Shown in pieces: positions 12,001 to 24,000 of a stretch of 64,000 bases of DNA. Made by a program: the position numbers. The first letter of the stretch is position 1. Each line of letters starts with the position of its first letter. This DNA comes from Waterburya sp. (lineage in GTDB: Bacteria > Cyanobacteriota > Cyanobacteriia > Cyanobacteriales > Xenococcaceae), in assembly GCA_965217895.1 (NCBI GenBank), contig CBDCJV010000002.1, positions 2,752,001 through 2,816,000 of the forward strand, read 5' to 3'.

Positions 12001-15000
12001 AAAAAGCAAACAAGGCTACGGCGATCGCCAAAATTACAGGAAACCAGTTAGCTACCGTAGCGAAAGATTCAGTGGTCAATAACACCCCATCATCTATAGA
12101 AGCATCCTTATAAGTTCCAGTAATGACAATTACTAAAGCGGTCATATTACAAATTATAATTGTATCGATTAGAGGCTCTAGCAAAGCTACTAAGCCTTCT
12201 CTAAGGGGTTCGTCGGTGCGGGCAGCAGAATGAGCGATCGCTGCCGACCCAACTCCAGCTTCATTAGAAAAAGCACTGCGTCTGATTCCCTGCACCATTA
12301 CCCCAATAATGCCACCGCCGACTGCTTTGGGAGAAAACGCTTCTGTGAAAATAGTGGCGATCGCGTTGGGAATTTCCGTAAAGTTGCTCAAAATAATCCA
12401 TAAACAAGAACCAATATAAATTATTGCCATCAAAGGAACTAAACTGCCTGTAATCGAGGCAATACGAGTAAGACCGCCAATAATCACCACTCCTACCAAC
12501 GCAGCGACGATTATACCAAAGAGCCAGCTAGGTAGATTAGGAATAACATTGGCTACAGCGACATAAGACTGGTTTGCCTGGAACATATTGCCTCCCCCAA
12601 AAGAGCCACAGATACAGAGGATGGCAAACAAAGCTGCCAAACCTTTGCCTACAGGACGTAAACCCATATCTGATAGGGGACGAGAAATGTAATACATTGG
12701 TCCGCCAGCTATCGAGCCATCTGCTTTAACCCGTCGATATTTCTGAGCTAGGGTACATTCAGTGAACTTACTGGACATCCCAAAAAAGCCCCCCAGGGTC
12801 ATCCACAGTACTGCTCCTGGTCCTCCAGTCTGTACGGCGATCGCAACTCCAGCAATGTTACCTAATCCGACTGTCCCTGATAGTGCCGTTGCCAATGCCT
12901 GAAAGTGAGATACCTCACCATCATCGTTAGGATCGTCATATTTACCCTGCACAATATCGATAGCGTGTTTTAAACCGCGAATATTAACAAATCCCATTCG
13001 CAGCGTAAAGAAAATTGAGCCACAGATCAACCACAGCACAATTAGGGGAAAACCAGCAATTTCAAAAAAGAGTACTTTATCTAAAATATCAACAAGTTTA
13101 GAAAAAACGCTATCAAGCGCACCAATGAAACCCCCTGGTGCTTTTTCCTCCGCAGCTAGAGCTACGTTCGGTAAAGCAAAGCTGAGTACTATGACCAAAG
13201 CCAAACATGATTTCCATTTATGTTTAAATTCATATGATTGTTTTACAAGCTGCATCTGTTTCAGCTTTCCGATCAAGCATTGAATATTTCTCATAGTATT
13301 TATAGTCTTTTGACAATGAAAATTTAATTGTAGTGTTTTGGTAACTTGTATATTTTTAAAATAAAATGCACATTTTATTTTAATTGGCAAAGCTGGCTCA
13401 ATTATTATGCTTTATGAAAAGATAGGCGGTAACATTTTCTACAAAAAATGTCATAATTACTTTATTCTTTGTCAAAGCTATAGTTGATAATTCCTAAGTC
13501 TTGAATTTTGACTTGAGTTTTAAATAGTTTATTTAAGGGTAAATAATAGTTAATTGATAGCAGCTTATATAAAAAAGTAAAATTTAAATCTACCAAAATA
13601 ATGTCCTAACATTACTAATTAATACAGATAATTTTTAAGCTGGCATTAGTACATCAACTACTGTTGCTAAATGGCAATGCCTACAGGGCGCGCTTCGCGA
13701 TCGCCAGAATATTCTACTTCAACATTATTACCTGGTGTAGAGTACAAAGAAGAGGCAAATAACTATAGAAAACATAATATGTCATGCAAACCTTTGCAGA
13801 TCCAAAACTTGCCAAAATTGTTGCTCAAGTTAATGTCAGTTCCTGTGAGGAAATTATTGAGCTTGATGCGTGTCGGCAGGGAATAAGCGATCTTTCAGGG
13901 ATCGAAAACCTCAAAAATCTCCGCAAACTGCACCTCGAACACAATCAGATCCACGATCTTACACCGTTGGCATTTTTGACGAGACTTACAGGTTTGTTCT
14001 TAAGTCACAATCAGATTGAGTTAATCGAACCACTTAATAGACTTACAGCTTTGCCTGCGTTAGATCTCAGTCATAATCGTATCAACGATCTTTCTTTCAT
14101 CGTTTATCAATAAGTCTAAGTTAACGTGGTTAAATCTCTCGCACAATAATATTAGCGATATCTCTGCACTAAAATCATGTCTCTATCTGACATAACTTAA
14201 CATCAGCAGTAATTATCTTGAAAATGTATCCATTTTTATAGAACTCACACAATTACGTTCGCTTAACTTAAGTGACAATTTGATAGTAGAGCTTCCTTGT
14301 CTTACACTATCGAGGACGATATTCCTGAAAACCAGATTCAGGAGCTAGATGTGAAAAACATGAGTAATTTTCGCCGTCCTGATTGGAAAAAGCAGACAGT
14401 AAATTGACCGTTAACCTAGATCCTTGACCGTTGCTAAATAGCGATCGCCAAAATATTCTATTTCGACATTAGTTCCAGGTGTAGAGTAAGCAAGAGGCAA
14501 ATAGGCATAAACAACGCATCTGCCCAGACTATAACCATAACCCGCACTAGTGGCATAACCTAATATTTTTCCTCCTGCTAAGATTGGCTCTTTACCCATA
14601 ATCACTACACTAGGGTCATCTAAGGTTAAATAGCAGAGTTTACGGCTTTGATATTGTTGGCGTTGAAGTAGAGCATCTCGACCGATAAATTCATCTTTAT
14701 TGGGCTTAACTGCAAAACCTAAACCAGCCTCATAAGGGTCGTATTCGGTATGAATATCTGTACCCCAGGCTAGATAGCCTTTTTCTAAACGTAGGGACTC
14801 AAACGCACCAACCCCAGCAGCAATGATGCCATAGGGTTGACCTGCTTGCCAAAGTAAATCCCATAGCTTTAGTCCTGATTCAGTAGGAACATAGATTTCC
14901 CAGCCTAGTTCTCCGACATAGGATACCCTCACGGCTAAAGCGGGAATTGCGCTAAGATAAATTTGGCGTGCGGTAAAGAAACCAAAGCCTTTATTTGAGA

Positions 15001-21000: not shown

Positions 21001-24000
21001 TTATTCAATCCCAAAACAGCCATTTTCTTTGCTGCTTTTCTGCCTCAATTTATGGGGACAACAACGCCCATGCTGCAAAGCGTGATACTTGGTGCGCTAT
21101 TTGTGGCAATAGCTGCGACAACCGATACCCTTTATGCGTTAGCTGCGGGTTCTATTGCCCCAGCGTTAGCACGAGCAAAGGGATTTCGCCAAGGACGTTA
21201 CTTAACTGGTGGTGCATTTATTGGACTAGGTATGATGACTGCCTTTGCTGGTCGTAGCAGCAAATAGCTATTGATGAGTGGTTCAAAAAAATAATTATAA
21301 TAAATAACTGTAAATTATTGATTTGTAATGGTGCAAAAATTTGATGCGATCGTTCTGGGTGCTGGAGGTGTAGGTAGTGCTGCTGCTTACTATCTTGCTA
21401 GATCGGGACAAAAAGTTTTATTACTAGAGCAGTTTGAACTCAACCATCAATTAGGAAGTTCCTACGGCTTTTCGCGGGTAATTCGCTATACTTACGACAA
21501 TCCAATCTATATCGAGCTAATGCGGGCTGCTTATCCCCTGTGGTTTGCTTTACAAGAAGAAGCAGGAGAGCAGCTTTATGTAAAGACAGGAGGTTTAGAT
21601 TTTGGCTTTCCCACCGAAGATACATTCCAAAAGCTAAAGCAAAGTATGGATGGGGCAGGATTAGATTATGAATATTTAGACAAACAAGAGGTTAGGCAGC
21701 GTTTTCCTCAGTTTAATCTGGATAATGGTATGGCAGCTTTGTTTCAGGCGGACACGGGCTTGCTAAGAGCTTCTGGCTGTGTGCTGGCTCATATTCGTTT
21801 AGCTCAAAAGCACGGGGCGACAGTTTGCGATCGCACTCCCGTCATTAAGATTATTCCCCATACTGATAGTGTAGAGGTACATACCGAAACAGAGACTTAC
21901 ATAGCCGAACGTCTGGTAATCACCGTAGGTAGCTGGTCAAAAGCTTTACTCGCCGAACAAGGTATTGATCTACCGCTAAAAATTATGCCCTGTCAGCTAG
22001 GATTTTACCGACCAAAAGAACCAGCAGCATTTAAGCCTGGAAACTTTCCCGTATTTTTTGCTCACATGAATGGCGAATACGGCGAGATGCCCTATGGTAT
22101 TCCCCACGAAGATGAAAGCATTGGCGTAAAAGTAACAACCTTTTATGGCTGGCAAACTGTAGATCATCCCAGTGAGGTAGACTATACCCCTAGTGAAGAG
22201 TGGGTAGAATATATCCGTAACTTTTCTCGACAATATATTCCTGGTGCAGCAGGAGAAACTCTTTCTACTCGTCGCTGTCTATATACCCTGACACCTGACA
22301 AAGATTTTGTGATTGATCGCCATCCTAATTATCCTCACATAGTATTTGGGGCAGGCTTTTCGGGACACGGTTTTAAATTTACCACCTTGACAGGAAAAAT
22401 GCTGGCGGAGTTGGCTTTAGAAGGAAAAACTCAGCATGATACAAGCTTATTTAAGCTGTCTCGTTTTCAGCAGGTAGCTGTTTAAACTAGAAATTAAAAT
22501 CAGGCTGCTAGTTGATTAAAGAAGCGATCGCGCTATAAATGATTATTCTGATGTCAATCCTATTGCTGTAAATCTTTTTGTAGTTGAGCGATCGCAGCAT
22601 ATTCGGTTTTAAAGCCATCTAAAAGACGACAATAAAGGGGTAAAACTTGCTGATAGTTAGCTACATTACTGGCAATTGGTTGATGCTGATGAATCTCGCC
22701 ATTTATGAGTTGAGATTCGGTCAAATCAGCGATTTCTCCCATAGCGTACAGTCCTAAAATTGCTGCTCCCAAACTAGAGCTTTCATAACTTTCGGGGATG
22801 CTTACTTCTTTATTAAAAACATCAGCCAACATTTGTCTCCATAGGGGAGAGCGGGCAAAACCTCCTGCTGCTCTAATATTTTTTACTTCGCCAGTAATAG
22901 ATTCTAAAGCTTGAAAAACTAAATACAGATTGTAAACTACGCCTTCTAATACCGCCCGAATCAGATGAGCTTTGTTATGATGCAGTGCCAGACCAAAAAA
23001 ACTACCTCTGGCGTTAGCATCCCATAATGGCGATCGCTCTCCTGATAAATAAGGGTGAAAGATCAAGCCTTCTGAGCCTGCGGGGATAGTTGCAGCGATC
23101 GCCGTCAACATATCATAGGGGTTTTGTTTGAGTAACTTAGCGGTATCAATTTCCGCATCGGCTAATTGGTCACGCACCCAGCGCAAAGTGATTCCCCCGT
23201 TATTGACCGCACCGCCGACAACCCAGTAATCTTCGGTTAGAGGATAGCAAAACAACCGTTGTTGGGGATCGGTTTGGGGTTTACTGACGGTTGCCCGAAC
23301 TGCGCCACTTGTGCCAACTGTCACTGTTGCAATGCCAGGAGCGATCGCACCTACTCCTAAATTGGCTAAAACTCCATCATTTGCACCAATGACTACAGGA
23401 GTATCTGCTGCAATACCCATTTCATCTGCATATTCTGTCTTTAGCGATCGCAAAATGTGAGTAGTAGGTACAAGTTGAGATAGCCCAGACGCTTTAATCC
23501 CTGCCAACTCTAGTGCTTCGGTGTCCCAAGTTAAGCTATTGAAATTAAATAAGCCCGTCGCTGAGGCGATGGAGTAATCGACGATATATTCTTGAAATAG
23601 CTGCCAGAAAATATATTCTTTGATGGAAATAAATTTTGCTGCTTGTTGCCAAAGTTCAGGCTTACTTTCCCGTAACCACATCAGTTTGACTAGTGGTGAC
23701 ATTGGGTGAGTCGGAGTTCCCGTACGAGTATATATTTCATGTCCTCCATACTCGTATTTTAGCTTATCTGCCCAGTCAGCACTACGGTTATCTGCCCAAG
23801 TCAAACTTGGTGTCAAAGGTTTTCCTTCGCTATCAACTACAATCAAACTGTGCATCGCTGCACTAAAAGATAGACAGAGAATCTCCGACTGATTTACGCT
23901 ACTTTTCGCAACTACCTGCTTTACAGTTGTGATTACCGCTTGAAAAATTTGCTCTGGGTTTTGTACGGCTGCCCCTAGAGTAGGTGCATTTAGAGGATAC

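Follow-up and report, generated by a model that had tools for sequence, protein, structure and literature searches.

A conserved cyanobacterial gene cassette probably imports a betaine and demethylates it to glycine

The 64,000-nt stretch of Waterburya sp. DNA analysed here (the window) harbors an intact cluster in which all genes have open reading frames. The genes for a dimethylglycine oxidase (DMGO)-like flavoprotein and a Rieske oxygenase are read leftward, those for a BCCT transporter, a LysE-type exporter and a protein resembling monomeric sarcosine oxidase (MSOX) rightward, and a perfect palindrome lies in the divergent promoter region (Table 1). A first-pass annotation had placed a BCCT/Rieske/DMGO/MSOX cluster at 14411..22485, and the open frames, domains and best solved matches bear this out; the LysE exporter gene was missing from its gene list. 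The DMGO frame is open from a TTG codon at 16888 (14411-16888, - strand), and translation probably starts at the ATG at 16828, resulting in a protein of the same length as its relatives. Codon bias gave no clear indication of recent transfer (GC3 z-scores of 0.4-1.8), and a promoter and terminator scan revealed nothing informative.

Table 1. Features of the cassette, in window coordinates.
Feature	Position	Strand	Remarks
DMGO-like flavoprotein with folate-binding GcvT domain	14411..16828	-	805 aa; DAO+FAO_M+GCV_T+GCV_T_C; matches of catalytic residues
Rieske non-heme iron oxygenase alpha subunit, uncharacterised clade	16986..18206	-	Rieske+Ring_hydroxyl_A; proposed first betaine N-demethylating step
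Perfect 16-bp palindrome ACTTGTAATTACAAGT	18388..18403	.	Divergent promoter; likely operator of GntR/UTRA regulator
BCCT-family transporter	18962..20596	+	BCCT domain; aromatic box for quaternary ammonium, marker of Na+ symporters
LysE/RhtB-type exporter, accessory	20605..21267	+	Domain/profile matches
MSOX-like flavoprotein (SolA/MSOX family)	21328..22485	+	DAO domain; sarcosine oxidase matches

The best solved match of the DMGO is the Arthrobacter-type enzyme 1pj5 (E 1e-241). Counterparts of H48, H225, Y259 and D552, which we take to be the histidine binding FAD covalently, the His/Tyr dyad and the aspartate of the folate site, are present here and in 26/26 cyanobacterial orthologues. Together with the four-domain architecture, these residues place the protein among the dimethylglycine oxidases/dehydrogenases and predict oxidase activity. 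Its nearest non-cyanobacterial-looking relatives lie at 60-65%. The MSOX-like protein matches solved sarcosine oxidases with E values of 7e-73 to 1e-67 and, according to the first-pass figures, is 35-38% identical to monomeric sarcosine oxidases. It scores 338 bits on the soxA_mon model TIGR01377, below the cut-off of 479.65, and 358 on the SolA model (SolA/MTOX), above the cut-off of 257. The flavin-binding Cys and the carboxylate-binding Arg and Lys residues of this family are retained: the window protein has Cys315, Arg49, Arg52, Tyr317, His345 and Lys348, as do 31-33 of 33 orthologues, with gaps in two rows at the N-terminal Arg residues. His269 is replaced by Phe in all 33 orthologues, and Met245 by Phe in most.

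The Rieske oxygenase has the metal-site residues of the group V oxygenases in the broad sense: the ligands of the Rieske cluster (C112/H114/C132/H135), the 2-His-1-Asp iron site (H237/H242/D363) and the bridging E234 are invariant in 26/26 orthologues. Its best solved matches are CntA, Stc2 and 3n0q (E about 1e-33), and fold comparison places it nearest to CntA (Z 37.7) and Stc2 (Z 37.3). Its score on the GbcA model NF058607 is 162 bits, whereas the cut-off is 670; the first-pass annotation had already cautioned that it falls below the cut-off. In the betaine demethylases GbcA/BmoA/Stc2 (group Vb), Asn occupies the position equivalent to CntA Y203 (PMC7948474); the window protein has F232 there, and 26/26 orthologues have Phe, compared with Asn in Stc2. 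The cysteine pair that adjoins the iron site in group V oxygenases (CntA C206/C209; PMC10952381) is absent, with Ser and Leu in its place. An aromatic residue at position 203 is a group Va feature, albeit a weak one because most of the listed non-Vb proteins are also aromatic there. In a quick tree of 78 rows, Stc2 groups with four GbcA-like proteins (100; GbcA itself was left out), and the window oxygenase falls into a separate 45-row clade (99) that it shares with marine heterotrophs. E. coli YeaW and proteins bearing the motif of plant choline monooxygenase (CMO) also branch outside this clade, in a tree that held no verified CMO or OxyBAC sequence. By its score, the Phe for Asn and its separate clade, the oxygenase is not a GbcA/Stc2 protein.

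None of the solved structures and NCBIfam models searched represents a characterised member of this clade, and an ESM Atlas search returned generic Rieske clusters only. The clade also occurs in roseobacters and low-GC marine contigs, and a relative is encoded in Phaeobacter inhibens (PGA1_RS18800). Heterotroph relatives are neighbored by aldehyde dehydrogenases (best model BADH, below its cut-off), a homocysteine methyltransferase or DddP-like peptidases, which would fit a chemistry other than betaine demethylation, and one relative (locus L030) adjoins a Stc2-like oxygenase and an enolase-family enzyme. JGI annotation labels many of the orthologues “choline monooxygenase”. A search for an oxygenase-reductase fusion among longer proteins gave one distant 904-aa match, which carries little weight.

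The BCCT transporter scores above the cut-offs of PF02028 (659 bits) and TIGR00842 (540 bits), and its best NCBIfam match, betaine_BCCT NF047988, gives 599 bits against a cut-off of 650. Of the solved carriers, the trimethylamine (TMA) carrier TmaT is closest (568 bits; ∼52% identity counted from the alignment), followed by BetT (425) and BetP (318); TmaT is reported not to bind betaine. All 22 BCCT orthologues carry W146, W151, Y154, W325, W326, W329 and G108 in TmaT numbering, and thus Tyr154, Gly108 and Trp329 in place of the markers of choline (BetT; Phe154/Asp108) and DMSP (DddT; Phe329) carriers (PMC11708041). Because TmaT and BetP share the box residues, these do not tell the substrate. 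Kinship to TmaT and the presence of three demethylating enzymes would agree with import of TMA and its demethylation to ammonium, a reading we hold to be highly improbable: the carboxylate-binding residues of MSOX and the active site of DMGO are kept, the serine dehydratase gene of many loci (see below) would be left unexplained, similar BCCTs flank haloarchaeal DMGO genes, and no residue that would distinguish carriers of TMA from those of betaine is named in the TmaT paper. The LysE exporter was seen only in loci of this genus; an EamA transporter is present in 8/22 distant loci.

The first-pass search had covered the order only and implied a restriction to one family. This restriction does not hold: a sample of 400 other Cyanobacteriia genomes contained 22 with linked oxygenase, DMGO and MSOX genes, and these represent six further families outside the order. 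Within the family, 6 of the 60 other genomes carry a Rieske orthologue, in agreement with the earlier count, and they come from four genera rather than three. Cultured strains with the oxygenase or the oxidase are Hyella patelloides LEGE 07179, Myxosarcina sp. GI1 and Leptolyngbya sp. PCC 7375. The 22 fully linked loci contain genes for a GntR regulator (19), BCCT (18), a serine dehydratase (15) and an MTHFR-like protein (12); the latter two (SdaA and MTHFR-like) are missing from the Waterburya sp. genome. None of the 40 loci mapped contains a reductase or an aldehyde dehydrogenase gene, which extends to 40/40 the earlier statement that the cluster lacks a GbcB-type reductase. MSOX orthologues occur without DMGO in four genomes, and the oxygenase occurs alone in one (G012). 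Such partial sets would fit a cassette that imports dimethylglycine or sarcosine released by neighbors, with a separate or accessory role of the oxygenase, and passages of PMC9321204 suggest that intermediates are exchanged. We nevertheless consider this very unlikely, as the oxygenase gene lies directly upstream of the DMGO gene on the same strand in 22/22 full loci and shares the likely operator, and the quaternary-ammonium box of the BCCT is complete.

Of 28 promoter regions, 27 contain the palindrome core TTGT-N4-ACAA, compared with a mean of 0.64 and a maximum of 3 for shuffles, and the window copy is the top-scoring site of the Waterburya sp. genome. Twelve of 15 genomes have matches to the strict pattern, which lie at the cassette with the exception of one site in G675. 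In genome G016, the MSOX gene is located ∼10 kb away and is preceded by its own copy. From this distribution we infer that the palindrome is likely the operator of the GntR/UTRA regulator of the cassette. A search of the Waterburya sp. genome for regulon members outside the cassette gave no convincing intergenic site. Direct control by NtcA was rejected, since the exact motif GTA-N8-TAC is present in 4 of 28 regions compared with ∼8 estimated by chance.

In the Waterburya sp. genome, we found neither BHMT (MetH only) nor MttB nor BADH, the nearest candidates for the latter being PutA, an SSADH-type enzyme and two weak matches. Across 28 carrier genomes, 22 have MetH only and none has a BADH over the cut-off. 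Lacking these enzymes, the Waterburya sp. genome offers the oxygenase as the only candidate source of dimethylglycine. The oxygenase could alternatively act like a choline monooxygenase, producing an aldehyde from choline or dimethylethanolamine that other host enzymes convert onward. The aromatic residue at position 203 is common to choline monooxygenases, the JGI names point the same way, and heterotroph relatives adjoin BADH-like dehydrogenases. Against these stand the 40 loci and the host genome with their lack of a suitable aldehyde dehydrogenase, the lack of BHMT or MttB to go on from betaine, a BCCT without choline markers, and a clade separate from the proteins with the plant CMO motif, and we judge such an activity to be improbable.

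Among genes for betaine synthesis, SDMT was not found in the Waterburya sp. genome (GSMT lay outside the direct search), and when 16 of the 24 candidate methyltransferases were scanned for motifs, none proved to be a close SDMT. SDMT is present in 1/34 genomes with an MSOX orthologue and in 26/401 overall, no different from independence, indicating that recycling of the own osmolyte is not the rule; we therefore rejected it as unsupported. FrmA (formaldehyde dehydrogenase) was matched in 26/28 carriers, in 24 over the cut-off. A GbcB-type reductase was likewise not found in the genome, where the single PF00175 protein is FNR-sized. The joint lack of a GbcB-type reductase, BHMT, MttB, BADH and a betaine-synthesis gene makes a choline route unlikely and ferredoxin/FNR a plausible electron donor. 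A Rieske-ferredoxin/reductase fusion, whose gene lies outside the cluster, is a competing candidate for this role; as an obligatory partner it was rejected, being found in 11/22 carriers.

Based on these observations, we propose, with a probability of about 0.6, that the cassette serves the substrate-induced scavenging of glycine betaine via glycine and serine to pyruvate and ammonium. The Na+-coupled BCCT would bring in an N,N,N-trimethyl betaine from outside, glycine betaine being the likeliest candidate, and the oxygenase would hydroxylate one N-methyl group to give dimethylglycine and formaldehyde. Because it has no reductase of its own, it would borrow electrons, most plausibly from ferredoxin/FNR. 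DMGO would move the second methyl group into methylene-THF, MSOX would take off the third to yield glycine, and glycine plus methylene-THF would give serine and then pyruvate and ammonium, with the dedicated regulator governing both arms through the palindrome. Passages of PMC9321204 describe a glycine-serine-pyruvate route as proposed here. Three demethylating candidates match the three N-methyl groups of betaine. The stepwise demethylation to glycine suggested by the first-pass annotation gains support from the serine dehydratase (15/22) and MTHFR-like (12/22) genes, the shared operator, and a genome without an alternative demethylase. Its labels “Rieske N-demethylase” and “glycine betaine” reach further than the GbcA score, the Asn position, the clade and the BCCT (599 vs 650 bits, nearest to TmaT) allow, and betaine demethylation by the oxygenase is a proposed first step.

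The same logic could also apply to another substrate, such as an alanine, serine, homoserine or proline-type betaine or an N-alkyl dimethylglycine. An oxygenase outside the known demethylase clade, the invariant Phe for His269 in MSOX, the frequent amino-acid exporter (LysE or EamA) and the L030 neighborhood would all suit this idea, which appears rather unlikely in view of serine dehydratase and MTHFR-like genes that indicate glycine plus C1 units and of DMGO residues that are all kept. Moreover, proline betaine has two methyl groups only, and carnitine would require extra enzymes, none of which was seen in 40 loci. As a tentative and more speculative extension, the oxygenase might be the prototype of another kind of betaine N-demethylase, the second to have evolved independently, which binds its substrate through a cation-π rather than an iron-carboxylate contact and is driven by photosynthetic ferredoxin.

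Betaine demethylation to glycine is usually credited to non-photosynthetic bacteria. Passages of PMC9321204, PMC12324868 and PMC12478193 treat cyanobacteria as glycine betaine producers and heterotrophs as consumers, and PMC12324868 itself suspects that there are uncharacterised first-step demethylases. We found no published report of this cassette in cyanobacteria. With a regulated catabolic cassette present in seven cyanobacterial families, phototrophs would count among those consuming organic nitrogen and C1 units. The cassette also offers a clean genetic context (operator and regulator) for this Rieske clade. Should the oxygenase indeed be a second demethylase, benthic cyanobacteria without betaine synthesis of their own would act as a light-powered betaine sink, and the roseobacter/low-GC marine clade would gain its first testable substrate.

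Compared with the GbcAB/BmoAB pathway of Pseudomonas and Chromohalobacter, the cassette shares the proposed Rieske start of a three-step demethylation to glycine, the bridging Glu, the 2-His-1-Asp iron site and a downstream serine dehydratase. It differs in an oxygenase of another clade far below the GbcA cut-off, with Phe for Asn at 203 and no cysteine pair, in the lack of GbcB in cluster and genome, and in a GntR-type instead of a GbdR-type regulator. The GbcAB-type pathway continues with DgcAB and SoxBDAG, whereas the cassette has DMGO and a monomeric oxidase. The DMGO of the cassette is a full-length homologue of Arthrobacter DMGO 1pj5 that keeps the catalytic and folate residues. The monomeric oxidase resembles Bacillus-type monomeric sarcosine oxidase over its full length, with the flavin Cys and the carboxylate-binding residues kept, but deviates in identity (35-38%), the soxA_mon score and His269. 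With group Va (CntA/YeaW, choline monooxygenase, OxyBAC), the oxygenase has in common the aromatic residue 203 for cation-π contact, the bridging Glu and the fold (Z ∼37 to CntA); it is 25-28% identical, forms a separate clade, and has no CntB-type reductase or aldehyde dehydrogenase gene alongside. The BCCT shares both aromatic boxes and the GXGXG motif with Met105/Gly108 with TmaT (8zw8) and BetP, and unlike for TmaT, no flavin monooxygenase gene was seen beside it. DMGO, SolA, Rieske and BCCT genes also lie together on a plasmid of Priestia megaterium H2 (NZ_CP071467) and on Haloferax volcanii pHV3 (NC_013964), clusters for which we found no functional study in the literature. They likewise have no GbcB-type reductase annotated alongside and an aromatic residue at position 203, although their oxygenases are 27-29% identical to that of Waterburya and located elsewhere in the tree. 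Since the four-gene set is also present on these plasmids, the design of the cassette represents a variation on a pathway already known.

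In the window, all five cassette genes are intact, and each is single-copy in the genome (table). We propose, with a probability of roughly 0.6, that the cassette scavenges glycine betaine and demethylates it to glycine. Its two arms diverge from a 755-bp spacer, and the named records closest to it are from Pleurocapsa, Waterburya, Hyella, Myxosarcina and Xenococcaceae.

Cassette, neighboring features and related loci (window positions unless a contig or locus is named)
Feature	Position	Strand	Remarks
VOC–glutathione S-transferase protein	8320-9465	−	glyoxalase/VOC domain joined in frame
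Alanine/glycine:cation symporter, Usp, low-specificity threonine aldolase	10120-13390	−	downstream of DMGO
Leucine-rich-repeat ORF	13784-14113	+	109 aa
DMGO (dimethylglycine oxidase) flavoprotein	14411-16828	− (leftward)	805 aa; DAO, FAO_M, both GcvT domains
Rieske oxygenase	16986-18206	− (leftward)	directly before DMGO
Palindrome ACTTGTAATTACAAGT	18388-18403		perfect; in divergent spacer
BCCT	18962-20596	+ (rightward)
LysE	20605-21267	+ (rightward)
SolA/MSOX-family oxidase	21328-22485	+ (rightward)	best solved matches: sarcosine oxidases
Gluconokinase	22560-24098	−	tail to tail with MSOX
Long ORF	24124-26205	−	presumably a ThiO-ThiG fusion
Rieske-ferredoxin/glutathione-reductase-type fusion	C2:2979669-2981330
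GntR orthologue	C2:3161494-3162234		~390 kb from cassette
MSOX with serine dehydratase fragments	L236 (G705) 9029-11243
Priestia plasmid cassette	L061 9013-15924		four gene types
Haloferax plasmid cassette	L062 4041-11490		four gene types

DMGO matches the dimethylglycine oxidase 1pj5 with an E value of 1e-241. In the MSOX-like protein, the flavin cysteine and the carboxylate-binding residues are retained, and His269 is replaced by Phe in 33 of 33 proteins. The retained carboxylate-binding residues argue for an N-methyl amino acid as the probable substrate. Both aromatic boxes are present in the BCCT protein, as is the glycine that marks Na+ symporters. Among NCBIfam models it fits the glycine betaine carrier best, though below the cut-off; its best solved match is TmaT, which, according to PMC11708041, binds trimethylamine and not betaine. 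The choline and DMSP markers described there are not in the protein. The BCCT residues examined cannot tell betaine from trimethylamine carriers, and trimethylamine as the substrate, toward which the TmaT match leans, is very improbable.

The oxygenase has a complete set of metal ligands and the bridging Glu. Its predicted model (pLDDT 95.6) is equally near to CntA (Z 37.7) and Stc2 (Z 37.3), and it reaches 162 bits on the GbcA model, whose cut-off is 670. Position 203 (CntA numbering), as described in PMC7948474, is Asn in the demethylases GbcA, BmoA and Stc2 but Tyr or Phe in CntA, choline monooxygenase and OxyBAC. The window protein (F232) and 26 of 26 orthologues carry Phe, and all lack the cysteine pair that PMC10952381 describes. 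In a quick tree of 78 rows, which left out GbcA, BmoA, plant CMO and OxyBAC themselves, the oxygenase clade (support 99) is separate from Stc2 plus GbcA-like proteins and from YeaW. Phe at this position is compatible with hydroxylation beside a charged nitrogen; where the carbon attacked is an N-methyl group, such hydroxylation would amount to demethylation. The same logic could serve another betaine, a possible reading that fits the oxygenase's place outside the known demethylase clade but is clearly less probable than glycine betaine. Two further, distant Rieske oxygenase types (27-30% identical) occur in four genomes of the family (L008-L011).

Heterotroph members of the clade are 38-53% identical and have methylamine-related neighborhoods: PDR reductase, aldehyde dehydrogenase and a DMG-dehydrogenase-like gene in Phaeobacter; PDR reductase, BCCT and soxBDAG in Ruegeria; aldehyde dehydrogenase and a rubredoxin-reductase-like gene in Pseudomonas MPC6; homocysteine methyltransferase, a GcvT-like gene and OpuAC on low-GC marine contigs, which we take to be SAR11-like by gene content; and a DMGO-type gene directly upstream on the L097 contig. 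These differing reductase neighbors indicate that the electron partner varies within the clade. DddP-like M24 proteins recur beside heterotroph relatives (L026, L060, L104, L112 and L120); the two scored fall below the DddP cut-off.

The window's genome is 99.9% complete and contains the homocysteine methyltransferase domain once, in a 1192-aa frame of MetH size; MttB, BADH and SDMT were not found in it. Across 28 cyanobacterial carriers of the cassette, the MetH-sized protein stands alone in 22, FrmA is matched in 26 and BADH exceeds its cut-off in none (weaker matches in 10). Choline-type oxidation by the oxygenase would agree with Phe at position 203, yet lacking BHMT-type, MttB or BADH enzymes the host would miss two steps of a choline route, and we consider it unlikely; a betaine-demethylating oxygenase would close the pathway.

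PDR-, YeaX- and rubredoxin-type reductases and aldehyde dehydrogenase are absent from all 40 loci mapped. PF00175 occurs in one protein of the window's genome, a 436-aa frame of FNR size (the lone such protein in 7 of 29 genomes tested), and Fer2 gives eight matches. Ferredoxin/FNR is the single tested donor common to nearly all carriers, and it would plausibly supply the oxygenase. The Rieske-ferredoxin/glutathione-reductase-type fusion, present in just 11 of 22 carriers, is a rival candidate in this genome; it is patchy across the class (41/401).

Close oxygenase orthologues exist in 6 of 60 other family genomes, with DMGO and BCCT adjoining in five; in the sixth (G012) the oxygenase stands alone and no DMGO was found in the genome. 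The range extends well past the order. Among 400 other class genomes spread evenly over families, 33 have an MSOX orthologue (at least 62% identity), and all 33 loci were mapped: oxygenase, DMGO and MSOX are linked in 22, from six further families, with BCCT in 18 of these; contig ends interrupt five, and six show MSOX alone. Uptake of intermediates, with the oxygenase as an accessory, would suit such solitary MSOX genes but hardly the 22 linked loci, and appears slightly less likely still than choline oxidation. When the phylum was sampled by another scheme, just 1 of 400 other genomes had a close DMGO; the cassette's frequency thus depends on how genomes are drawn. Named loci include MAGs of Phormidesmidales, Phormidesmis, Leptolyngbyaceae and Elainellaceae, and most named carriers are, we presume, marine benthic or mat organisms. 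One locus (L236), in a genome without DMGO, is probably a decayed cassette. In quick trees, a single clade (support 100) unites all tested oxidases from cyanobacteria with one further protein, and the oxygenases likewise fall in one clade (support 97), which fits one ancient acquisition followed by patchy retention or exchange.

Full loci also contain a GntR/UTRA regulator (19 of 22), L-serine ammonia-lyase (15; the one protein scanned was above cut-off), an MTHFR-like gene (12; sole solved match 7xg9) and an EamA transporter (8). These accessory genes point to glycine as the product. The window's genome lacks SdaA and MTHFR-like genes and has a threonine ammonia-lyase homologue. Its GntR orthologue, 76% identical to the cassette-adjacent GntR of Hyella, is split from the cassette by rearrangement; beside it lie OHCU-decarboxylase and cupin genes, which L244 and L245 have close to their cassettes.

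The spacer palindrome is the highest-scoring such site in the genome. Its core, TTGT-N4-ACAA, is present in 27 of 28 spacer regions (mean 0.64 and maximum 3 in 500 base shuffles; the genomes are related and hence not independent), and its shape is, we assume, that of GntR/HutC operators. In G016, where MSOX is displaced by ~10 kb, that gene has its own copy of the site ~130 bp upstream. With no conserved NtcA site in the spacer regions searched, the cassette looks induced by its own substrate through a dedicated regulator, presumably GntR/UTRA acting at the palindrome.

Several neighbors deserve mention. The leucine-rich-repeat ORF looks truncated, since its counterparts beside DMGO in L012, L022 and L245 have 320-325 aa. 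The VOC domain of the fusion protein carries an in-frame, partly duplicated insertion. The symporter adjoins the cassette in three relatives, and the symporter-Usp pair recurs on contig C1 (59% and 43%). Gluconokinase, above the TIGR01314 cut-off and not kept beside the cassette elsewhere, hints at organic-carbon use.

Betaine breakdown via BHMT has reportedly been published for Aphanothece halophytica, and BmoAB is said to be the subject of Shao et al. 2018. In the titles, abstract openings and passages of the full-text literature searched, mostly non-subscription papers, there was no report of the cassette in cyanobacteria or of the clade's function; supplementary gene lists, Dataset S2 of PMC12478193 among them, could name the genes. 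As far as searched, the cassette is therefore new for cyanobacteria. Priestia and Haloferax plasmids also bring together the four gene types (DMGO, SolA, Rieske oxygenase and BCCT); their Rieske oxygenases are unrelated to the one here and likewise non-Asn at position 203, suggesting that the set recruited such oxygenases repeatedly. The pathway type is known in heterotrophs, from PMC9321204, PMC12324868, PMC12478193 and bioRxiv 2021.12.09.472016, and the cassette is a real, regulated and moderately widespread version of this catabolic design.
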